Assembly (NCBI GenBank): GCA_029259015.1
Contig: JAPDJQ010000059.1
Coordinates: 1 to 46,378, forward strand
DNA length: 46,378 nt
Reading direction: 5' to 3'
Source of the DNA: Thermoplasmatota archaeon
GTDB lineage: Archaea > Thermoplasmatota > E2 > UBA202 > JdFR-43
This document shows positions 35,820 through 46,378 of the stretch, in pieces; within the stretch, counting starts at the first letter, position 1, and every line of letters starts with the position of its first letter. Made by a program: the position numbers and the translations under genes. A model generated the notes under the pieces. The model searched no databases and was not told where the DNA came from. It saw only the letters and a program-made list of their open reading frames with translations.

Positions 35820-36485
35820 ATGGATTTAAAGGATGATAAAAAATCTAGATTGAGATGCTTTACAGATATTTTTGTTTCTAAATGGCTTGCTTACCTTAAT
35901 TTTCTGGTTGGTATAGCTTCTCTTTTGTTATATTTAAATTTTAAAATACCCATAAATGTTCCTGTTTATACTTTATATGCAGTTTTCTTTGCGCTCTCGG
36001 TTATTCTTATAACATATGCGATGAATTTCAAACGAGACTGGGAAATTATATGGATACTGGTTTCACTGATTTTCTACGTATTCATTATTTTCTATTTTGT
36101 TGAGGATCAAGTTAATTTGTTTACAAAATTTAAACTCGATGAAAATATTTCGTACTGGTTCCAAAGCGGTATATTACAAGGTTTTTCCGCACTCTTAGGC
36201 ATTATTGTTGGTTTTTTGGTTGCAAGCTCAGTAAATCATAAAACTACAGAAATATTAGGGGTTTTGAATCTTTTTTATCCTGCACTCATATGCATCAGCA
36301 TTTCTCTCCTCTTGTCAATAACGCTTCTTCCTTTATCACCTGTTTTGAGTTGCACAAAATATAAATCATTTTTAGTCCCAACAATTTTAACAGTCTGGCT
36401 TATAGCTACCTTGGGCATTTTTTGGTTATGCTATGCAATATACTTATTTTATAAAAATAAAACTAAAACACAAGAACAAAGATAG
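35820..36485 (+). CDS. Hypothetical multi-pass membrane protein
   Basis: 221-aa ORF with about 6 hydrophobic segments; no family recognised; T-rich compared with its neighbours. Confidence 0.6.
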   Translation: MDLKDDKKSRLRCFTDIFVSKWLAYLNFLVGIASLLLYLNFKIPINVPVYTLYAVFFALSVILITYAMNFKRDWEIIWILVSLIFYVFIIFYFVEDQVNLFTKFKLDENISYWFQSGILQGFSALLGIIVGFLVASSVNHKTTEILGVLNLFYPALICISISLLLSITLLPLSPVLSCTKYKSFLVPTILTVWLIATLGIFWLCYAIYLFYKNKTKTQEQR

Positions 36486-36489
36486 GGCA

Positions 36490-37845
36490 TCAATGCTCCA
36501 TTTTCCTTACATACATTTTAGCCCATGAGAATGCAATAAATGCTGCAATAGTATTGCCAACAACTATTCCCATCCATACACCTTTTAGGCCGAGATGGAT
36601 GCTAAATGCAAAAATATATGCCATTGGCACCGTCAATATTATGGTTCTCAGAATTGTGACAGCCAGCGAATTCATTCCTTTTCCAATTCCCTGAAACATT
36701 GCTGATGAAAACATACCAAATGTTGCAAAAGGATAGAAGAGAGTGATTATTTTAAGAAAAGTGGTTAAATCATTGGCTATACGAGCCGAATTTTGAGAAT
36801 GAGTGAATAACAGGGTAATCCAAGGGGCAAAAACATATGTAAATATTGCTACTGTTGTTCCTATCACAAATCCGAGTTTAATTGCATACATGTAAGAGGT
36901 ATTTAATTTTTCAACATCCCTTGCTCCATATGCAGCTCCTGTAACAGCTGTCACAGCAGTTGCAATACCAAGTAAAGGAATCATTCCAATCATTACAACC
37001 CTCCATCCTGTGGTGAAAACAGCTACACCATCTGTGCCTCCTGCTCTTACCACAAGAATGTTAAGAACAAGAATTGAAAAAGACATTGAAAGTTGAATAA
37101 TAGAAGCAGGTATTCCCACTTTAAGAATTTCCTTTACTATTTGCCAGTTAAAAGAAAATTCGTTGAAATGAATAGAAACATAAGTAGTCCTTTTGAAAAA
37201 TAACCAGTAAGAAAGGAGGATAGACGAAGTGATAATTGAAATAAGAGTTGCCCATGCTGCCCCAGCCACCCCTAAGCGAAAAGTGTAAATGAAAATTGGA
37301 TCCAGTACAATATTTAGGATTGAGCCCAGAAGTAATGCATACATGGCTCGTTTTGTATCTCCTTCTCCTCTTAAAATTCCATTGGCTATGCTTGAGAAGA
37401 AAATGAAGATTGAACCAGCAAACAGTATTCTTGCATATGCTGTTGCCATTTTTGTAACCTCTCCTGCACCCATTACAGCAAAGAGCTTATCAATAAATAT
37501 GAGGAAGGGCAAACTAACAGCTATAGCTACAATACCCCCAATAATTAAAGAGTGAATTGCCACGCTATCTGCATCTCTTTTATTTCTGCTGCCAATTTTC
37601 CTTGAAATTGCAGAACTTGCTCCAACACTTATACCAGTTGCAAGAGCCATTAAAAGAAAGAAGAAAGGAAAGAAGAAACCAACTGCAGCAAGAGCATCTG
37701 CTCCTAAACCAGAAACCCATATTGCATCTACAATATTATACACCATTTGTGCTGACAAGCCAACAATCATTGGCAGAGCCAGCTTCCTTATTGCTTTTTT
37801 TGGATTACCTAAAAGAATTTTCACTCCTTCCGTTACATGCTCCAT
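36490..37845 (-). CDS. MATE family efflux transporter
   Basis: LALPMI...YNIVDAIWV..LG..ALAAVG, RGEGDTKRAM, NIVLDPIFI...LGVAGAAWAT; about 12 TMs. Confidence 0.95.
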   Translation of the reverse strand: MEHVTEGVKILLGNPKKAIRKLALPMIVGLSAQMVYNIVDAIWVSGLGADALAAVGFFFPFFFLLMALATGISVGASSAISRKIGSRNKRDADSVAIHSLIIGGIVAIAVSLPFLIFIDKLFAVMGAGEVTKMATAYARILFAGSIFIFFSSIANGILRGEGDTKRAMYALLLGSILNIVLDPIFIYTFRLGVAGAAWATLISIITSSILLSYWLFFKRTTYVSIHFNEFSFNWQIVKEILKVGIPASIIQLSMSFSILVLNILVVRAGGTDGVAVFTTGWRVVMIGMIPLLGIATAVTAVTGAAYGARDVEKLNTSYMYAIKLGFVIGTTVAIFTYVFAPWITLLFTHSQNSARIANDLTTFLKIITLFYPFATFGMFSSAMFQGIGKGMNSLAVTILRTIILTVPMAYIFAFSIHLGLKGVWMGIVVGNTIAAFIAFSWAKMYVRKMEH

Positions 37846-38053
37846 TTCATCGCTCCTTTATGAAAAAGTATCATTAAAATGTTATGGATATAGCTATACC
37901 ATCAGAAATTTTAGAATTTGAAATAATGAAAAGATATTTTTGTCAGATGGAAACAGGTAGAAATGTAGCAGCATGCAATGAGTTAATAACTGACAGAAAC
38001 TTTTTCTTTTTGAAATTTAGATAAAGATATAAGGTGTGCCTCGTTGTATCAAA

Positions 38054-38479
38054 ATGAAAGTTTGTATTGTATATGAATCAAAATATGGAAATGGAAAAAA
38101 ATGTGCAGAATATTTGCAGAGCATAATAAAAGCAAAAGGATATGATGTGGATTCTTTTTCCATTCGCGAAATAAAGCCAAATTTATTGCCGGAAGCAGAT
38201 TTTTATATTTTCAGCTCTCCGACACATATAGGAAGCATTCCATGGAAAATGAGGAGATTTTTGAAGAAAATAAAACCAAAGAGCGAAGCAAAATATGCTC
38301 TCATGACAACTTGCATAAGCCTCGATACAAAAGTTATTCAAAAAATGGAAGAAATTCTCAATAAAAAGGGCATGATAAAGATTTCAGAAATTAAAATTAA
38401 AGTAAAGGGCATGAAGGGGCCCCTAGAAGAAAAATACAAAGAAAAGCTTGATGCATTTGTTGAGGAAATTTTTATATAA
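38054..38479 (+). CDS. Flavodoxin-domain protein
   Basis: IVYESKYGNGKKCAE FMN-phosphate loop, FSSPTHIG. Confidence 0.85.
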   Translation: MKVCIVYESKYGNGKKCAEYLQSIIKAKGYDVDSFSIREIKPNLLPEADFYIFSSPTHIGSIPWKMRRFLKKIKPKSEAKYALMTTCISLDTKVIQKMEEILNKKGMIKISEIKIKVKGMKGPLEEKYKEKLDAFVEEIFI

Positions 38480-38484
38480 AAATA

Positions 38485-38557
38485 TGGGCTCGGGGAGATT
38501 TGAACTCCCGACCTTCGCCTCGTCAAGGCGACGTCATAACCCCTAGACCACGAGCCC
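38485..38557 (-). tRNA. tRNA-Val(GAC), no intron, CCA not encoded
   Basis: GGGCTCG acceptor stem pairing with CGAGCCC-A; D arm TGGTCTAGGGGTTATGAC; anticodon arm TCGCC-TTGACGA-GGCGA; T arm GGGAG-TTCAAAT-CTCCC. Confidence 0.96.
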
Positions 38558-38720
38558 TGAGTTAATATGCAAAACGATATTTTAAAATTATTCCTTCCTT
38601 TCAGCAAAAGAATAACAATTGTTGCAGCAATATGCCCACTCCATTAAATAACGAACTCATGCAGCCACCAACCAATTCATTTCCATTTTTCTTCATCAAG
38701 TTTAAAAATAGGCATGATAT

Positions 38721-41030
38721 ATGGAAAAGGAGATGGAGGCGTTAGAACATATTCAGAAATTGGCAGCGGAGGCAAAGAAATATAATGAAAGGCGTATGGT
38801 AGTTTTAGCTGGCAGTAGGGAAAAAAGTTTTCATATTCTCTTTTCTTTTCTTGCAGATTATAATGGCAAGATTGCTCTCCTTTCTTCATTAGAGATGAAA
38901 TTTAATGGAATAGATTGTTTCCATTTAAAGGATTCAAGCAAACTGCTTGGCACCACTTATGACATTCTAATTTTGGACATATATCATTCCCTGCAGCCAT
39001 CTGATGTTGGCAAGTTATATGGCATAGTAAAAGGAGGAGGATTAATTTTTCTCATAACCCCAAAGCTTGAGGAATGGAAGGAAATGGTTAATAGATATCA
39101 TCTTCGCCTGCTTACGCCCCCTTATAAGGAGAAGGATATAAGGAAGAATTTTATTCCGTGGTTTGTTGAGAAGTTAAAGCAGCATAATGGTATAGCAATA
39201 ATTGAGGATGGCATTGTAATAAAAAGTGGCTTATATAAGAGCAAGAAGGAAAAAAGGAAAAAGCCTGTTCTGCCAGAAAAAAGAGAGTTTAATGACATTG
39301 CTTACAAAGTTGCCATAACTCAAGATCAGGTGGATTTCATAAAATGCTTGGAAGAAATGATAGAAAAGCCAAATCCAACGACTGCAGTGGTTTTGAAAGC
39401 TAACAGGGGCAGAGGAAAATCAAGCGCCATTGGCATTGCATTGCCTGCTTTAATAGAAAAGCTTCTTGAATATAAGAAGAGCATGTATGTCATGCTTGTA
39501 GCTCCTGATATAAAAAATGTTCAGGAAATTTTCAAGTTTGCAGAGTTAGTATGGAAAAAAATGGGACAGAAGCCAAATAAAAGAAAGGCAGGAGGAGATG
39601 CTGTTGCTCTACATTTAAACAATGTAACTATCGAATATTTCAAACCGTTGAATGCAATAGAAAAATATGCTGATTTAATTGTTGTGGACGAAGCAGCTTC
39701 CATCCCACCTAATATATTGCTCAACTTCACCAAAAACTCCAACAGGATAATTTATTCTTCAACAGTGCATGGCTATGAAGGAGCAGGCAGAAGTTTTTCA
39801 ATAAGATTTTTGAAACGCCTCAAATCAATGAATATAAAGCTGATAGAATTTGAAATGGAAGAGCCGATTCGCTATAGCAAATATGACCCTATAGAAAAAT
39901 GGGCTTTTGATACCTTGCTTTTGGATGCGGAAGCAGCAGAAGTTAAAGAAGTTGATTTGAGTAAAGTCGTATATGAAAAAATTCAGATGGAAAATATTTT
40001 GCAACAGGAGGAAAAACTTCGTCAGTTCTTCGGCATTCTCATTTTAGCTCATTACAAAAACAACCCCAATGATTTGGCAATATTATGTGATGCCCCCAAT
40101 CAGATGGCTCGCGCTTTAAGTTATGAAGGCAAAATAATTTGTTCCATGCAGCTTGCTCTGGAAGGAAATATGAGCAAAGAGGACTGCCATCGCCTCTATT
40201 ATGAAAGCTCAATGATTCCAGGCAATGTTCTCCCGCAAATAATGATAAGACATTATCGCAAGAAAAAGCTTGGACAATACAAAGGAATGAGAGTTGTTAG
40301 AATAGCAGTTCATCCTGATTTATTTAGGCATGGAATAGGCTCAAAGGCATTGGAAAATGTTATAGAGGAAGCAAGAGGAATGCAGCTTGATTATGTGGGG
40401 GCAAGCTTCGGCGCCACAGTCTCATTACTCAAATTCTGGATGAAAAATGGGTTTTTGCCGATGCATATGACAACAAGCATGAATGAAGTCAGTGCAGAAT
40501 ATTCTGTTGCTGTCATAAAGCCATTAAATGAAAAATTTGAAAAAGAATTGAGAGAGATGAGGAAAGAATTCATGAAAAGGTTCATGTACTGGCTTATTGA
40601 GCCTTTGCGTGATTTAAACAGCAGGGTTGCTTTAATGATTTTAGATTCATATGAAGGAGAGGAAATTGATTTAGGCATAGATGAAAAAGAGTTGAGTAGG
40701 CTGCTGGCATATATATGGAAGGCTGGCCTGACTTACAAAACAGTAAAAGATTGCTTATTCAAGTTATCATATAATTTCTTCCTCAGCAACAGGAAAAAAA
40801 TTTTAAATGAGGAAGAGAGATTACTCCTGCTTACAAAGAATCTGCAGTGCAAAAGCTGGGATAGGGTTGCCAATATAATGGGCAAAAATGAAGAGAAATG
40901 TAAGGAAATGCTGATTGAAGTTGTCAAAAAAATTGTAAATGAATTTTATGGTGATAAAGATGAAGTGCTTGAATTTCAAAAAGAAGTACAAAAGTTTGCT
41001 GAAAGAAGGGAAGAAAGTAGCAACGCTTAG
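38721..41030 (+). CDS. tmcA: RNA cytidine acetyltransferase TmcA/Nat10 (helicase + GNAT)
   Basis: LLGTTYD, ANRGRGKS, VVDEAA, STVHGYEGAGRSF, EPIRY, AHYKNNPNDL, RVVRIAVHP...HGIGS. Confidence 0.96.
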   Translation: MEKEMEALEHIQKLAAEAKKYNERRMVVLAGSREKSFHILFSFLADYNGKIALLSSLEMKFNGIDCFHLKDSSKLLGTTYDILILDIYHSLQPSDVGKLYGIVKGGGLIFLITPKLEEWKEMVNRYHLRLLTPPYKEKDIRKNFIPWFVEKLKQHNGIAIIEDGIVIKSGLYKSKKEKRKKPVLPEKREFNDIAYKVAITQDQVDFIKCLEEMIEKPNPTTAVVLKANRGRGKSSAIGIALPALIEKLLEYKKSMYVMLVAPDIKNVQEIFKFAELVWKKMGQKPNKRKAGGDAVALHLNNVTIEYFKPLNAIEKYADLIVVDEAASIPPNILLNFTKNSNRIIYSSTVHGYEGAGRSFSIRFLKRLKSMNIKLIEFEMEEPIRYSKYDPIEKWAFDTLLLDAEAAEVKEVDLSKVVYEKIQMENILQQEEKLRQFFGILILAHYKNNPNDLAILCDAPNQMARALSYEGKIICSMQLALEGNMSKEDCHRLYYESSMIPGNVLPQIMIRHYRKKKLGQYKGMRVVRIAVHPDLFRHGIGSKALENVIEEARGMQLDYVGASFGATVSLLKFWMKNGFLPMHMTTSMNEVSAEYSVAVIKPLNEKFEKELREMRKEFMKRFMYWLIEPLRDLNSRVALMILDSYEGEEIDLGIDEKELSRLLAYIWKAGLTYKTVKDCLFKLSYNFFLSNRKKILNEEERLLLLTKNLQCKSWDRVANIMGKNEEKCKEMLIEVVKKIVNEFYGDKDEVLEFQKEVQKFAERREESSNA

Positions 41031-41295
41031 AATGGGGACAAAAAATTATAAAAAGGATGAAATAGTGAAGATAATAGCGGGAGGAGAATATATAGGCAAA
41101 GCTCGAATTGTTGAAGTGAGGCAGATTCCCTGGAAAGAAATTAACAGAAAAGATGTCCTTATGGAAGGAATGAAAAGGAAAAAAGATTTGGAAAAAGAGC
41201 TTAAAGCCATATATGGAAAATTTGGAAAAAATAGAGTATTTACACAAATAGTGTTTGAGATAATAGGTGATGAAAATGGAGGAGGCAAAGTTTGA
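40960..41295 (+). CDS. ASCH domain protein
   Basis: LNFKKKY..LL.EGKKVATLR (GxKxxTxR), later DVLMEG; start ATG 40960 after GGTGA; overlaps tmcA by 71 nt. Confidence 0.88.
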   Translation: MKCLNFKKKYKSLLKEGKKVATLRMGTKNYKKDEIVKIIAGGEYIGKARIVEVRQIPWKEINRKDVLMEGMKRKKDLEKELKAIYGKFGKNRVFTQIVFEIIGDENGGGKV

Positions 41296-42607
41296 AAGAA
41301 TAGGAAGCCACTCTCATATTACCGGCTTAGGTTTGGAAGGAAGAAAAGCAAAATTTGTTGGCGATGGCCTAGTAGGGCAAACAGAGGCGAGGGAGGCAGC
41401 TGGCATAATTGTTGATATGGTGAAAAAGGGCAGATTTGCAGGAAGAGCTATTTTACTTGCTGGTCCACCTGGAACAGGCAAAACAGCAATAGCAGTGGGC
41501 ATAGCCAAAGAACTTGGCAGGGATGTCCCTTTTGTTTCTATCTCTGGCTCAGAAATTTATTCTGCAGAAATGAAGAAGACAGAATTTTTAATGCAGGCAT
41601 TGAGAAAAGCTATAGGAGTAAGAATACATGAAATGCGAAAAATTTACGAAGGAGAGGTAACAACTCTTGATATCCAAACAGTGCCACATCCATACAATCC
41701 ATATCAGCAAGTGCCCAAATCAGCTACACTTGGCTTAAAAACAAAGGATGAGGAAAAGCAATTTAAGGTGGATGAAACTTTTGCTCAATATTTAATTCAG
41801 CAGAATGTAGAAGTAGGTGATGTTATCCAAATAGATGCTGATTCTGGGAGAATAGTTAAGCTTGGAAAAACAAAAGAAGCTTTGAAAAAGGAAAGTATGG
41901 ATTTGCATGTTAAAGATGCAGTTGAATTGCCAGAGGGAAGCATTGTCAAGGAAAAAGAATTTGTCTATGTTCTTTCATTGCATGATTTGGATGCAGCGAC
42001 ATCAAGGAGAGGAAGTTTCTTTAGCTTATTCTTTGGTGGAAAAGAAGAAATAACAAATGAAACGAGGCAGGAAGTTGATGAAATGGTCAAGAAATGGGTT
42101 GATGAGGGAAGAGCAGAGATTATACCAGGTGTTTTATTTATTGATGAGGTACATATGTTGGATATAGAAGCATTTGCATTTTTAAACAGAGCAATGGAAT
42201 CTGATCTGGCACCAATTATTATTCTTGCTTCCAACAGAGGAATGGCAAGGATAAGAGGAACGGATATAAATTCTCCTCATGGTGTTCCTTTGGATTTCAT
42301 TGACAGGCTGCTCATAATAACAACTAAACCATATAACAGGGATGAAATTAAGAAAATTCTGGAAATACGCTTGAAAGAAGAAAAAGTGCAAATGGAAAAG
42401 GATGCTCTGGAATACTTAACAGAGATAGGAGTGAAAGCATCGTTGCGATATGCTGTCCAGCTAATAGCGCCTGCATCAAACATTGCCTCATATCATAAAA
42501 GGGAAAAGATAACAAGGGAAGACATTGAAGAAGCTGAAAAGCTATTTGTTGATGTCAAAAAATCAATGAAATATCTGAAAGAATATGAGGAAATGATGCT
42601 GGGTTGA
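41276..42607 (+). CDS. TIP49/RuvB-like AAA+ ATPase (archaeal Rvb1/Rvb2 homolog)
   Basis: RIGSHSHITGLGL, GLVGQTEAREAAG, AGPPGTGKT, SEIYSAE.KKTE, GVLFIDEVHMLDIE, ASNRG, SPHGVP.DFIDR, SLRYAVQL. Confidence 0.96.
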   Translation: MEEAKFERIGSHSHITGLGLEGRKAKFVGDGLVGQTEAREAAGIIVDMVKKGRFAGRAILLAGPPGTGKTAIAVGIAKELGRDVPFVSISGSEIYSAEMKKTEFLMQALRKAIGVRIHEMRKIYEGEVTTLDIQTVPHPYNPYQQVPKSATLGLKTKDEEKQFKVDETFAQYLIQQNVEVGDVIQIDADSGRIVKLGKTKEALKKESMDLHVKDAVELPEGSIVKEKEFVYVLSLHDLDAATSRRGSFFSLFFGGKEEITNETRQEVDEMVKKWVDEGRAEIIPGVLFIDEVHMLDIEAFAFLNRAMESDLAPIIILASNRGMARIRGTDINSPHGVPLDFIDRLLIITTKPYNRDEIKKILEIRLKEEKVQMEKDALEYLTEIGVKASLRYAVQLIAPASNIASYHKREKITREDIEEAEKLFVDVKKSMKYLKEYEEMMLG

Positions 42608-42610
42608 ACA

Positions 42611-43153
42611 ATGAAAAATGAAGAAAAGATTAAGCTCAGTAAACTCATGTGTTATATTTTACGGCATGCTCCATGGGAATTTGGTATAAAGCCAGATAAA
42701 ACTGGCTTCGTTGAGCTGCATTCGCTCCTTTCCGCCGTTAAGGAAGTTTATCCATGGGTTACAGAGAAAGATGTGAGGATAGTAGCTGAAAGCGATGAAA
42801 AAGACAGATATGAAATTAAAGGTAATAAAATAAGGGCTCGTTATGGCCATAGCTACAGCGTTATCCTTGATCATAAGGAAGATAAAGACAGCAAAATTCT
42901 CTATCACGGCACTGCATATAAAAATCTGGAAGGCATTCTGAAGGAGGGTATTAAGCCCATGAAAAGACAATTTGTGCATTTAACAATAAACAAGGAAGAT
43001 GCTCATAGAACGGCTCTAAGACATGATAAAAAAGTAGTTATTCTTTTGATAGATGCTGATTGTCTGAGGAAGAAAGACCTCAAGATTTACAGGGCTGGGA
43101 GAATAGTTAGGCTAGTAAAGTATGTTCCTCCAGATTGCATTAAATACCCATAA
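42611..43153 (+). CDS. kptA: RNA 2'-phosphotransferase KptA/Tpt1
   Basis: [39 protein letters not shown]. Confidence 0.95.
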
Positions 43154-43181
43154 TCTTTTTATATTACACTGTAATACCATC

Positions 43182-44330
43182 ATGGAAGCTTTGGGAGATA
43201 AAAAGGGTGTGTTGAAGAGCATAATAAAACAGTTGCATCAGGGTGCAAGTATTGAAGAAGTCAGAGAAAAAGCAAAAGAAATTTTAAAGGACTTAACACC
43301 TGCAGAAATAGCAGAAGTAGAACAGGAACTGGTTAAAGAAGGCATATCAAGAGAAGAAATTCAAAAACTATGTGACATTCATTTAGAGATTTTTAAAGAG
43401 GCAGTTGAGAAAAAAGCAATTTCATTGCCAGAATGGCATCCCTTGTATATATTAATGGAGGAACATAAAATTTTGCTTGAATTTGCTGAAAAGTTGAATA
43501 AAGCAGCAAACGAAAATGATGCTGAGAGGGTTGACAAAATAGTGCACCATTTGAAAGAGGCTGAAAAGCATTATCTGAGGGAGGAGAATGTTTTATTTCC
43601 TTACATAGAAAAGCACGGCATAACGGAGCCTCCTGCCATTATGTGGATGGAACACGATAAAATAAGAGAGATGAAAAAGAAAATTTATGAATTTGCAGAA
43701 AAGAAAGATTTTGAAAGGTTGAAGGAAATGGCTATTGCTCTGCAAAAAATGCTATCTAGCCATTTCTATAAGGAAAATAATGTGCTTTTCCCAACAGCTT
43801 TAAAGGTAATGGATGAAGAAGAATGGAAAGATATTAGGCAGCAATTTGATGAAATTGGATATTGTTGCTTCACACCTCCAGTGAAAAAGATTGAATATGA
43901 GGAAAAACCATGTGAGGAAAAAGAAGGTGTGATTAATTTTGAAACAGGAAGTTTATCAAAAGAAGAACTTGAGGCTATGCTGAATACACTGCCAGTTGAT
44001 ATTACTTTCGTGGATAAAGATGATACTGTCAGATATTTCAGTCAGTCAAAGGATAGAATTTTTGTGAGGACAAAAGCCATAATAGGCAGGAAAGTGCAGA
44101 ATTGTCATCCAGGCAAAAGCGTTCATATTGTAAACAAAATATTAGAGGAATTTAAAAAAGGAAATAGAGATAAAGCAGAATTTTGGCTCGATATGAATGG
44201 AAGAAAAATATACATAAGATATTTTGCAGTCAGGAAAAATGGCGAGTATATTGGCATAATAGAAGTTACGCAGGATATAACAGATATAAAGAAGATAGAG
44301 GGAGAAAAGAGATTGCTTGACTGGGAATGA
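43182..44330 (+). CDS. DUF438 + hemerythrin-like + PAS domain protein
   Basis: EI..VEQEL..EG....EIQKLCDIH; HP...LMEEH, HYLREENVLFP, MWMEHD, H.YKENNVLFP; PAS region LPVDITFVD...RIFVR....IGRKVQNCHP. Confidence 0.88.
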   Translation: MEALGDKKGVLKSIIKQLHQGASIEEVREKAKEILKDLTPAEIAEVEQELVKEGISREEIQKLCDIHLEIFKEAVEKKAISLPEWHPLYILMEEHKILLEFAEKLNKAANENDAERVDKIVHHLKEAEKHYLREENVLFPYIEKHGITEPPAIMWMEHDKIREMKKKIYEFAEKKDFERLKEMAIALQKMLSSHFYKENNVLFPTALKVMDEEEWKDIRQQFDEIGYCCFTPPVKKIEYEEKPCEEKEGVINFETGSLSKEELEAMLNTLPVDITFVDKDDTVRYFSQSKDRIFVRTKAIIGRKVQNCHPGKSVHIVNKILEEFKKGNRDKAEFWLDMNGRKIYIRYFAVRKNGEYIGIIEVTQDITDIKKIEGEKRLLDWE

Positions 44331-45475
44331 TTGAAGAAATAGTTGAACTATGGCTAGATATATCGCCCTATCTTTTATTGGGTATGTTCATAGCAGGATT
44401 GCTTCATATTTATCTGGGCAGTCCATTTATTAAAAAACATCTGGGTGGAGGTAAAAAGAGTATATTTAAAGCCAGCCTGCTTGGTGTTCCATTGCCTGTA
44501 TGTTCATGCGGAGTAATACCAATAGCAACATCCTTGCATGAAGAAGGAGCAAGTAAAAGCGCCACACTCTCGTTTCTTGTTTCAACACCTACAACAGGCG
44601 TTGATTCAATTCTTGCCACATACTCTCTACTTGGCCCTTTATTTGCTATTTTTCGCCCTTTTTTTGCATTCTTTGCAGGCATTTTTACTGGCTTTGTGAA
44701 TTACATGATTGAAGGAGATGGAAAAGAGATAAAAGAACATAAACATGAGGAGGAAAGAAAGAGCTTTTTAGATGGGCTAAAATATGCTTTTCTTGAATTG
44801 CCTGAAGATATGGGAAAATGGCTTGTGATAGGTGTTATCGCAGGAGGAATAATAGCCTCTATACCTTTTCAGATAAAAGCTTCATATCCATATGACATGT
44901 TTGCAGCTCTCGCCATTTCATTGCCTCTCTATGTGTGTGCTACAGGCTCCATTCCAATAGCAACAGCCCTCATTACAAAAGGATTCTCTCCTGGATCTGC
45001 TCTCGTTTTTTTAATAGCTGGTCCTGCAACCAATACAATAACTTTATCTTTTGTTAGATATAAGCTTGGCAGGAGAAGTTTCTTTATATATTTGTTTTCC
45101 ATTATAACACTTTCTTTATTTGCTGGCATAACATTCAATTTTATATGGGATTACTGGCAAAACATAGCCACACTCACCTTCATGCCACCGTACTGGATTA
45201 AACTATTATCTGGCATTATACTTGCAGCATTGATTGGCAGGGCTTTAATAGCTCCTTTCTTAGAAAAGAAAATGGAAATGACAGAGATTCTATTTGTGCC
45301 AGATATGCATTGTCGAAACTGTAAAGCAACAATAGAAAAAGAATTGAGAAAGAAAGGCATAAAAAATTTTTATGTCTCCCTGGAGAAAAAATCTGTTGGC
45401 TTGCTAAATCCGGAAGACAGAGAAAAAGCAATTGATGCAATAAAAAGAGCAGGATATAAAATAGAGAAGCCGTAA
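44327..45475 (+). CDS. ArsP/DUF318-type metal permease with C-terminal HMA domain
   Basis: GVPLPVCSCGVIP, STPTTGVDS, PLYVCATGSIP, AGPATN; C-terminal MHCRNC metal-binding motif. Confidence 0.88.
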   Translation: MIEEIVELWLDISPYLLLGMFIAGLLHIYLGSPFIKKHLGGGKKSIFKASLLGVPLPVCSCGVIPIATSLHEEGASKSATLSFLVSTPTTGVDSILATYSLLGPLFAIFRPFFAFFAGIFTGFVNYMIEGDGKEIKEHKHEEERKSFLDGLKYAFLELPEDMGKWLVIGVIAGGIIASIPFQIKASYPYDMFAALAISLPLYVCATGSIPIATALITKGFSPGSALVFLIAGPATNTITLSFVRYKLGRRSFFIYLFSIITLSLFAGITFNFIWDYWQNIATLTFMPPYWIKLLSGIILAALIGRALIAPFLEKKMEMTEILFVPDMHCRNCKATIEKELRKKGIKNFYVSLEKKSVGLLNPEDREKAIDAIKRAGYKIEKP

Positions 45476-45503
45476 AGCATATATATTACGCCGTAATAAT
45501 ACT

Positions 45504-45701
45504 ATGAAAGGTATTGCCATTTTTGTTGCTATTGCTATGCTAGCCATACCTTTTGGCAGCATAATAGAAGCTGGAGAAGAAAAAGCTGTTGTCGCCATAA
45601 CCTATTATGGCATCAATGGAATCAGCAAAATAAGGAAGGAGATGAGTATCAATGAAGCGAAAAAATTAATGAAAGAGAGAAAAATAACGCTTTTAATATA
45701 A
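45504..45701 (+). pseudogene. Probable truncated secreted protein (signal peptide plus about 35 aa)
   Basis: Clear signal peptide MKGIAIFVAIAMLAIPFGSIIEA, upstream TATA-like ATATATATTA; ORF ends where it meets a convergent ORF. Confidence 0.45.
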
Positions 45702-45889
45702 CTAGGTATCTCTTCTTTAATGCACTTTAGTATAAGTTTGAATCTAAATTTATATTTCGAAGATTTAATCTCACGTAACTGTTTCTTTCGTTCCTCTAAC
45801 TCTTTGTTTCGTTTTTTTAACAAACTGTCAAGCTTATTTAACGAATTATCGAGTTCCTCTAATTCGGTTTCCAGTCTTTGCAAACTCAT
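45605..45889 (-). CDS. Hypothetical coiled-coil protein or gene fragment
   Basis: Heptad-rich N-terminus (LETELEELDNSLNKLDSLL); the last ~30 codons are antisense to the 45504-45701 ORF. Confidence 0.35.
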   Translation of the reverse strand: MSLQRLETELEELDNSLNKLDSLLKKRNKELEERKKQLREIKSSKYKFRFKLILKCIKEEIPSYIKSVIFLSFINFFASLILISFLILLIPLMP

Positions 45890-45941
45890 TACCCATTACC
45901 AGCTTCTCAAATTATCTAACAAAATTGAACATTTTAAGGAT

Positions 45942-46378
45942 TTAGTTATAATAATACGTGTGTAACTGTTGCAACACATTCGTATTTAAATGAGCTATCC
46001 TCTGTGTAGAAATGCAGACTCTTAATCCGTATTTTCTCCCATGTCTTGTAGATCTTCTATAGCTTCGGAGCATTCCAATTCTTCAGTTTTTCTTCTGGCT
46101 TTGATGAATTCTTGTGCTCATCGAAAACAAATAGGATAAATGGACTTATTTTGAATTTTCTTTTTCTTCGATCTAAAATTTCCCTTGTGATTATGATGGC
46201 TAAATCTCTTATCCTATCAGGATCCGGAATGTTCAATACAATCAATTCTTTTTCGTCAGACTCTAAGCTTTCAAGCAACTCATCAATGGTGATTTCATTT
46301 TTCGCTTTTTCCTTTTCTACAGTTAAAACTTCCATCCAAGACCTTAATGCCTTCGGGATGTCATCCGGTTTATATCTC
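45942..46378 (-). pseudogene. HerA/FtsK-family ATPase C-terminal region with two frameshifts and premature end (5' part outside window)
   Basis: ILFVFDE then, after a shift near 46116, (A)QEFI...EAIEDL; after a second shift near 46048, [31 protein letters not shown]; stop at 45942-45944. Confidence 0.8.

Follow-up and report, generated by a model that had tools for sequence, protein, structure and literature searches.

A tmcA-ASCH-TIP49-kptA gene array in a Thermoplasmatota archaeon: a known tmcA-ASCH pair with probable lineage-specific additions

We analyzed a 46,378-nucleotide (nt) stretch of DNA, hereafter the window, which is contig JAPDJQ010000059.1 of the Thermoplasmatota assembly GCA_029259015.1, a metagenome-assembled archaeal genome (MAG) of 1.41 Mb in 134 contigs that is 86 % complete. 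Four open reading frames (ORFs) packed on the forward strand at 38721..43153 encode the RNA cytidine acetyltransferase TmcA, a small ASCH protein, the AAA+ ATPase TIP49 and the RNA 2'-phosphotransferase KptA. We think it probable that these genes are a real local operon, consisting of an already known tmcA-ASCH core to which TIP49 and kptA are lineage-specific additions. Judged from sequence, only tmcA-ASCH is a deeply conserved unit, a writer of N4-acetylcytidine (ac4C) with its likely remover, and this known pair is functionally coherent. A first-pass annotation of the same DNA had proposed an RNA-modification and ribonucleoprotein (RNP) remodelling operon. The compact co-directional array and the RNA-modification theme of that proposal stand, but the membership of TIP49 is reduced to a local adjacency.

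The identities proposed for the four genes were unambiguous with Pfam and NCBIfam, and the domain assignments bear out the RNA-modification theme for TmcA and KptA. Three Pfam profiles exceed their cut-offs in TmcA (TmcA_N PF08351, E 5e-32; NAT10_TcmA_helicase PF05127, E 2.5e-52; GNAT_acetyltr_2 PF13718, E 8.1e-38) and tRNA_bind_2 PF13725 reaches 25 bits, slightly below its 27-bit cut-off; we judge the four-part TmcA/NAT10 architecture of N-terminal, helicase/ATPase, acetyltransferase and C-terminal tRNA-binding domains to be present. The P-loop R229-G-R-G-K-S234 is invariant across 18 aligned TmcA sequences. The NCBIfam model for haloarchaeal TmcA, NF041296, matches at E 1.1e-166 with 556 bits, under its cut-off of 700; because the model is named for Halobacteria, this shortfall bears on the haloarchaeal subgroup alone.

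The product of the second gene matches Pfam ASCH (E 1.6e-13), and a G-x-K-x-x-T-x-R motif together with further invariant residues is common to 18 tmcA-linked ASCH proteins. The best Protein Data Bank (PDB) match of the ASCH profile is E. coli YqfB, aligned end to end (E 3.4e-5). For YqfB, a Thr-Lys-Glu triad (K21, T24, E74) has been described, with R26 in the oxyanion hole and Tyr89 in substrate binding; mutagenesis found Lys21, Thr24 and Arg26 essential and showed that Glu74 and Tyr89 matter (PMC6972931). In a HMMER alignment to 1te7 and 9kyf, YqfB Lys21, Thr24, Arg26, Glu74 and Tyr89 correspond to K19, T22, R24, E69 and Y85 of the window protein. The 18 tmcA-linked proteins do not vary at K19, T22, R24 and Y85 and have E or D at residue 69. 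The same study counts Asp27 and His70 among the residues that are 100 % conserved in the YqfB clade and reports an approximately tenfold loss of activity for His70Ala (PMC6972931). Neither is kept in the tmcA-linked proteins, which have M, L, I or V at the Asp27 position and D or E at the His70 position.

An AlphaFold2 model of the ASCH protein (predicted local distance difference test 91.7, predicted template modelling score 0.81) finds YqfB 9kyf/9kyh as its top Foldseek PDB matches, with a template modelling score of 0.77-0.85 and a root mean square deviation of 1.8 A over 101 columns. The ASCH protein thus resembles E. coli YqfB (PDB 1te7, 9kyf, 9kyh; PMC6972931) in fold, end-to-end alignment and the K/T/R/E/Y catalytic residues; it differs in that identity is merely 17 % in the structural alignment, in the replacement of Asp27 and His70, and in the linkage of its gene to tmcA. 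It is likely, from profile and model, that the gene encodes a YqfB-type N4-acetylcytidine amidohydrolase. The first-pass annotation had overlooked ASCH as the informative partner, a predicted ac4C amidohydrolase that travels with tmcA across phyla.

How widely the pair occurs was estimated from gene neighbourhoods. A word-based homologue search with ASCH returned 15 close relatives only (at least 61 % identity); a clade hidden Markov model (HMM) was built and genomes were searched instead. Beyond the family of the window genome (25 genomes, 8 genera), we used the nearest ORFs and the clade-specific HMM, with which a divergent ASCH farther away would be missed. Within the family, ASCH was found in 13 of 25 genomes, and in each of these it overlaps tmcA at the 3' end; the 14 genomes tested for both genes comprise 8 with both, 6 with neither and none discordant. 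The Thermoplasmatota sample has tmcA in 15 of 141 genomes. In 6 of the 10 tmcA loci fetched from it outside the family (43 of 69 flanking ORFs scanned), a Pfam-confirmed ASCH overlaps the end of tmcA by 20-92 nt, in three families and with different flanking genes. A Thermoproteota sample has tmcA in 43 of 121 genomes; with 30 of 55 matches fetched and 89 of 147 ORFs scanned, ASCH lies directly 3' of tmcA in 5 of 30 loci, one of them encoding 68 amino acids (aa) after a 107-nt gap. Finally, tmcA is found in 67 of 81 genomes of a phylum sample that holds a Thermococcaceae genome.

A prokaryotic operon of tmcA and YqfB-clade ASCH has been stated before from comparative genomics (preprint 10.64898/2026.08.01.741249), and a second preprint describes ASCH proteins as erasers of tRNA ac4C (10.64898/2026.02.27.708502). 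The window pair agrees with that operon, having a TmcA/NAT10 orthologue followed by a small stand-alone ASCH of the threonine type with the motif given above. Here the overlap measures 71 nt, and relatives in two phyla share an overlapping arrangement. What sets the window apart is that TIP49 and a second kptA follow the pair on the same strand.

Other genes were also seen beside tmcA. Two tandem same-strand genes for NYN-domain proteins, predicted RNases, replace ASCH after tmcA in 5 of 10 loci of the Thermococcaceae-containing phylum sample (L185, L187, L188, L190, L191). Another AAA+ protein turns up next to tmcA in 3 of 30 Thermoproteota loci (L202:5428-7533, L205:1-2139, L217:47-1945), where the gene immediately 5' of tmcA and in the same orientation encodes a Cdc48-type double AAA ATPase; the three genomes may be close kin. 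The tRNA 1-methyladenosine (m1A) methyltransferase gene GCD14/Trm61 was found near tmcA in three loci (L115:8504-9217, L116:5200-5928, L210:5701-6474). Downstream of a tmcA-ASCH-DUF123 block, a ribonucleotide reductase gene carries an intein with a LAGLIDADG domain (L111:4321-7998), and its orthologue in L113 is without the intein.

The layout of the window array was compared with the first-pass description of four same-strand genes with overlaps of 71 and 20 nt, a 3-nt gap and a divergent tRNA-Val, and the ORFs, start sites and ARAGORN/Rfam results agree with it (Table 1). The longest ORFs span 38721-41030 (769 aa), 40939-41295 (118 aa), 41267-42607 (446 aa) and 42611-43153 (180 aa), which gives overlaps of 92 nt for tmcA/ASCH and 29 nt for ASCH/TIP49; with starts at ATG 40960 and ATG 41276 the overlaps are 71 and 20 nt. 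Both of these ATG are preceded, at 4 nt, by GGTGAT, which is Shine-Dalgarno (SD)-like. Motifs of this type mark internal cistrons in archaeal operons. The conserved tmcA/ASCH overlap and the SD motif lead us to infer translational coupling. The TIP49 stop (42607) and the kptA ATG (42611) are 3 nt apart and no promoter-like box was seen between them. GC content is unremarkable over the region.

Table 1 Positions of the array genes and of the features at its borders in the window
Feature	Position	Strand	Basis and remarks
tRNA-Val(GAC)	38485..38557	-	ARAGORN; Rfam tRNA 67 bits; divergent, 163 nt upstream of 38721
TATA-like box TTTAAAAA, probable promoter of the tmcA array (inferred)	38701..38708	+	sequence reading; 25 nt before ATG 38733
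tmcA, RNA cytidine N4-acetyltransferase (TmcA/NAT10 family)	38721..41030	+	Pfam; 769 aa, or 765 aa from ATG 38733
ASCH gene, predicted YqfB-type N4-acetylcytidine amidohydrolase, 111 aa	40960..41295	+	Pfam ASCH, YqfB profile/fold; overlaps tmcA in the +1 frame
TIP49, RuvB-like AAA+ ATPase, 443 aa	41276..42607	+	Pfam; alternative starts 41267, 41270; AGGTGAT 4 nt before ATG 41276
kptA/Tpt1, RNA 2'-phosphotransferase, 180 aa, short second copy	42611..43153	+	Pfam PTS_2-RNA, NCBIfam NF002013
T5 run at 43156 and TATA-like TTTATATT at 43158, probable array end and next-gene promoter (inferred)	43156..43165	+	sequence reading

The array appears to be bounded by a promoter-like box before tmcA and by a T5 run with a TATA-like box after kptA. 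These promoter and terminator statements come from reading the sequence, a bacterial-consensus promoter scan being unsuited. ATG 38733 is the second in-frame ATG of tmcA, and the alignments of relatives, which begin at residues 3-6, agree with a leaderless start there. A further TATA-like box stands at 41047, ahead of TIP49. T5 runs occur inside tmcA and TIP49 as well, and the one after kptA is thus a weak terminator cue. The four genes are probably read as one transcript from the promoter upstream of tmcA to the T-run after kptA. The expression data consist of three metatranscriptome runs of one sample from one study, in which an RNA-library contig of 488 nt (1 mismatch) covers 40711-41198 across the tmcA/ASCH overlap and another of 364 nt (no mismatch) covers 41097-41460 across the ASCH/TIP49 overlap.

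We do not count the tRNA-Val as part of the unit, since relatives carry another divergent tRNA beside tmcA or lack one: Leu(GAG) in L034 (212-297), Val(CAC) in L229 (8014-8086), or none. In three family contexts, the window included, a tRNA stands divergently upstream of tmcA and it is a different one every time (Val-GAC, Leu-GAG, Val-CAC). A permissive Rfam scan of 36000-46378 returned tRNA only and no box C/D sRNA or other RNA family.

TIP49 is a canonical member of its family. PF06068 is matched at positions 1-346 of 347 (E 1.1e-150, 502 bits) and TIP49_C PF17856 at positions 1-66 of 66, residues 4-441 align over the full length with chains of RuvB-like 1 and 2 (E 1e-118 to 1e-131), and the Walker A motif G65-P-x-G-T-G-K-T72 is invariant in 16 archaeal sequences. 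It is therefore like eukaryotic Rvb1/Rvb2 (TIP49a/b; R2TP, INO80, SWR1) in its full TIP49 architecture with inserted domain, AAA lid and Walker A. Eukaryotes carry two TIP49 paralogues, Rvb1 and Rvb2; unlike them, the window genome has one TIP49 match at E <= 1e-40. No solved archaeal TIP49 is among the 28 PDB matches.

The first-pass annotation had suggested that TIP49 may work with these enzymes and had called for a gene-neighbourhood survey. Functional membership of TIP49 in the set is not supported, and its adjacency to the other three genes did not recur in independent, distant lineages. The order tmcA-ASCH-TIP49 is found in 5 of 5 genomes of genus g1, 4 of 4 of g2 and two genomes of g7, all in one Thermoplasmata family, and the four-gene order in g1 only. 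Among named records the trio is in 10 of 13 family loci, and one of the remaining three begins at a contig end. The order is broken in g4, where the overlapping tmcA-ASCH pair and TIP49 are on different contigs, and TIP49 persists in g3 and g8, in whose genomes (84-98 % complete) tmcA and ASCH were not found. Whether or not tmcA-ASCH precedes it, TIP49 keeps its convergent downstream neighbours (isochorismatase, ribosomal protein S2) in 5-6 family loci.

Outside the family we looked at 67 TIP49 loci from Hadarchaeota, Aenigmarchaeota, Thermoproteota, Nitrososphaeria, Bathyarchaeia, Micrarchaeia, Brockarchaeota, Asgard and others. None of the 67 has tmcA, ASCH or kptA adjoining TIP49 by tblastn, several loci being short and tblastn being weak for ASCH; one has a tmcA fragment 6.5 kb from TIP49. 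Clustering the neighbours of the 64 loci with a complete TIP49 ORF gave lineage-specific blocks only: ABC-transporter genes with a dual-specificity phosphatase (13-16 loci), HMG-CoA reductase (10), a zinc-ribbon protein (7), AcnX/UbiD (4-6) and GCD14/Trm61 (4). The adjacency of TIP49 to tmcA-ASCH thus looks local, the outcome of one evolutionary event in one family. Literature searches on archaeal TIP49 and its gene context gave no published tmcA-ASCH-TIP49-kptA cluster, and among the papers listed none dealt, judged by title or abstract, with the gene context of TIP49; the ac4C preprints were checked for tmcA operon context and not for TIP49 or KptA.

Some details of these TIP49 loci are worth recording. 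The commonest context seen has the dual-specificity phosphatase directly 3' on the same strand in 13 loci (L082:8361-8837 and 12 more; Thermoproteota, Brockarchaeota and other archaea), with three paralogous ABC-transporter membrane genes upstream. In four loci (L107:8374-9144 and three more) the tRNA methyltransferase GCD14/Trm61 is directly downstream of TIP49. Contigs titled as Bipolaricaulota/Acetothermia MAGs (L084, L096, L099, L101) carry TIP49 61-64 % identical to archaeal ones, reflecting either transfer into bacteria or mis-binned archaeal contigs.

The fourth gene is equally clear in its assignment. KptA matches PTS_2-RNA PF01885 at positions 2-174 of 177 (E 1.2e-34) and the RNA 2'-phosphotransferase equivalog NF002013 with 260.6 bits against a cut-off of 231. 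The catalytic tetrad of KptA/Tpt1 enzymes is Arg-His-Arg-Arg. Matches to PDB chains 9ld4 and 8tfi score 233-265 bits; the alignment with 8tfi, at 265 bits, runs over residues 6-177 and contains the identical stretches LRH, RARYGHS and KRQ.VHL. The nearest named relatives are Pyrococcus/Thermococcus-named proteins with 55-67 % identity.

PF01885 occurs in 24 of the 25 family genomes in two forms. The long copy (open frames of about 210-260 aa) is in 23 of these 24, and the short copy (176-227 aa), the type of the window, is in g1, in 3 of 4 g2 genomes and in G023. The window genome itself has a second, long kptA (G000:C64:4084-4584; L227:3967-4644) that is 35.5 % identical to the window copy. 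A horizontal origin of the short kptA is likely, given its 55-67 % identity to Pyrococcus/Thermococcus proteins, 35.5 % to the resident long copy and 265 bits to 8tfi. Only in g1 does kptA adjoin TIP49; 5 of 5 genomes of that genus keep the four-gene order, their kptA being 61-89 % identical; the short copy of g2 is elsewhere with other neighbours. Compared with Thermococcales KptA/Tpt1 (PMC9095486; 8tfi, 9ld4), the window protein is of the same length class (177-183 aa) in addition to the identity given above, and differs in that its host is a Thermoplasmata archaeon that also has a long copy.

Taken together, these results suggest the following scenario. TmcA would acetylate cytidine to ac4C in tRNA and rRNA, and the ASCH protein would remove the acetyl group, either from RNA as an eraser or from released ac4C nucleosides. 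All 19 ASCH proteins assayed in one preprint take ac4C off tRNA (10.64898/2026.02.27.708502). We consider ac4C nucleosides from RNA turnover the more likely substrate, as in salvage, because making a writer together with an enzyme that erases the same sites would serve no purpose. Translational coupling would tie the dose of ASCH to that of TmcA. TIP49 would have been placed behind tmcA-ASCH later, in one branch of one Thermoplasmata family, and a horizontally acquired second kptA of Pyrococcus/Thermococcus type would have been inserted behind TIP49 in genus g1 only. TIP49 and kptA may share regulation with tmcA-ASCH here; we found no evidence of TIP49 working as a machine with TmcA, ASCH or KptA.

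Several observations weigh against this reading. The trio is kept in 10 family loci with varying genes on either side of it, and TIP49, with an SD-led start inside the overlap with ASCH, has the look of a genuine internal cistron. Since the trio survives rearrangement of its flanks and the TIP49 start is SD-led, selection for co-expression may have acted to some degree. The RNA contigs that bridge the overlaps have a depth of 2-3 and come from one study, and they can neither prove one continuous transcript nor rule out carried-over DNA; kptA, its junction with TIP49 and a large part of tmcA have no RNA contig over them, gaps to which we attach no meaning. As to the core, an adjoining ASCH is missing from 4 of the 10 non-family Thermoplasmatota tmcA loci (two families), from 25 of the 30 Thermoproteota loci and from all 10 loci of the Thermococcaceae-containing phylum sample. 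Finally, TIP49 and tmcA share genomes far above the expectation from independence in three phylum samples.

This co-occurrence was counted per genome as both genes / TIP49 only / tmcA only / neither, giving 11/3/4/123 for 141 Thermoplasmatota genomes, 18/0/17/116 for 151 genomes of the phylum of G171 and 40/26/3/52 for 121 Thermoproteota genomes. The TIP49 genomes that also have tmcA are accordingly 11 of 14, 18 of 18 and 40 of 66, and 40 of 43 Thermoproteota tmcA genomes have TIP49. In Thermoplasmatota TIP49 is present in 11 of 11 genomes with the tmcA-ASCH pair and in 0 of 4 with tmcA alone. The two genes are not adjacent in these genomes outside the family: TIP49 adjoins tmcA, ASCH or kptA in 0 of 6 both-gene genomes of three other Thermoplasmatota families, and stands beside tmcA in 0 of 18 (phylum of G171) and 0 of 40 (Thermoproteota), the closest distances on shared contigs being 72 kb and 49 kb respectively. 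Since the genomes belong to few related, apparently thermophilic groups, kinship alone can yield such a pattern. The co-occurrence can be explained by kinship and thermophily and we treat it as a lead, not a finding.

One alternative explanation is that the array is a functional RNA-modification/RNP-remodelling operon, in which TIP49 uses ATP to chaperone or remodel TmcA, and perhaps ASCH and KptA, on tRNA, rRNA or guide RNPs. In eukaryotes, box C/D small nucleolar RNPs are assembled by Rvb1/2, and two such small nucleolar RNAs guide Kre33; the Rfam scan of the region is, for its part, without a box C/D family. The gene overlaps with the SD-led internal TIP49 start, and the RNA-library contig across ASCH/TIP49, agree with this explanation. 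The trio is kept in three genera despite differing flanks, but the adjacency looks like one event in one family and tmcA adjoins none of the 67 other TIP49 loci. Likewise, the co-occurrence in three samples, with TIP49 in all 11 Thermoplasmatota pair-bearing genomes, speaks for a connection but is confounded by kinship and thermophily: TIP49 without tmcA is found in G006, G011, G013, G016, G018, G172, G173 and 26 Thermoproteota genomes, tmcA without TIP49 in 24 genomes of the three samples, the two genes are never nearer than 49 kb on a shared contig in the both-gene genomes of the other two phylum samples, and they are apart in g4. We regard such an operon as unlikely and keep the idea as a weak lead.

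Alternatively, through an adaptive insertion of a Thermococcales-type kptA in g1, enzymes that write ac4C, remove it and take off 2'-phosphates may have come under a single promoter, with TIP49 a bystander; thermostabilising tRNA marks would then be adjusted together. T. kodakarensis KptA is reported as an eraser of tRNA 2'-phosphouridine 47 (Up47), in vitro and in E. coli (PMC9095486), which makes the allusion of the first-pass annotation to thermostabilising marks an apt one, and the window KptA is of the Thermococcales type (55-67 % identity; 233-265 bits to 9ld4 and 8tfi). The same paper counts Thermoplasma acidophilum among the species without Up47 (PMC9095486). A search of the window genome for the Up47 writer ArkI with Pkinase and RIO1 profiles gave one RIO1 kinase only, no ArkI/COG2112 profile being used. 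The constant four-gene order of g1, with kptA 61-89 % identical and a 3-nt TIP49/kptA gap free of a promoter-like box, fits joint control; against it, the arrangement is confined to one genus, the g2 paralogue lies elsewhere among other neighbours, a housekeeping kptA copy is already in the genome and the window kptA has no RNA contig over it. We consider this turnover module distinctly unlikely.

It is also conceivable, if quite improbable, that the role of archaeal TIP49 is tied to RNA cytidine acetylation, for example in loading or releasing TmcA on structured RNA. If this were true, the family operon would be the one place where the link shows in gene order and the co-occurrence over three phyla would be the broader sign of it.

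The ASCH fold is PUA-like and binds RNA. That the ASCH protein is a non-enzymatic RNA-binding specificity subunit of TmcA, like Tan1/THUMPD1 for Kre33/NAT10, made in step by translational coupling, would suit the cross-phylum overlap with the tmcA 3' end (stoichiometric co-production) and the strict co-presence and co-absence of the two genes in the family, but is very improbable given that many TmcA-bearing archaea have no adjoining ASCH, that 19 of 19 assayed ASCH proteins removed tRNA ac4C (10.64898/2026.02.27.708502), and that the Lys, Thr and Arg essential in YqfB are conserved with Glu and Tyr across the 18 tmcA-linked proteins, which would be unnecessary for a mere adaptor.

Beyond the array, the next gene on the same strand encodes a DUF438-hemerythrin-PAS protein with a probable start at ATG 43182 (alignments of relatives begin at residue 20). 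It is followed with a 4-nt overlap by a gene for an ArsP-type permease (together 43182-45475, +), which has a C-terminal heavy-metal-associated domain and matches the NCBIfam SO_0444 Cu/Zn efflux model with 328.7 bits. The same two genes are also 3' of kptA in the g1 records L031, L033 and L034, and they may form a metal- or oxygen-sensing efflux pair.

Had TIP49 shared a conserved operon with RNA-modifying enzymes, this would have offered a first clue to what it does in archaea; the clue obtained here is weak, the linkage being local to one family. Under the reading we prefer, a local operon built on the known tmcA-ASCH core, three results keep their use. The TIP49-tmcA co-occurrence over three phyla is a statistical lead that can be tested. 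A KptA of Pyrococcus/Thermococcus type appears to have been added to the array in a vent-type Thermoplasmata genus. The window also provides a clean further example of a predicted ac4C writer/deacetylase pair, with its catalytic residues mapped.

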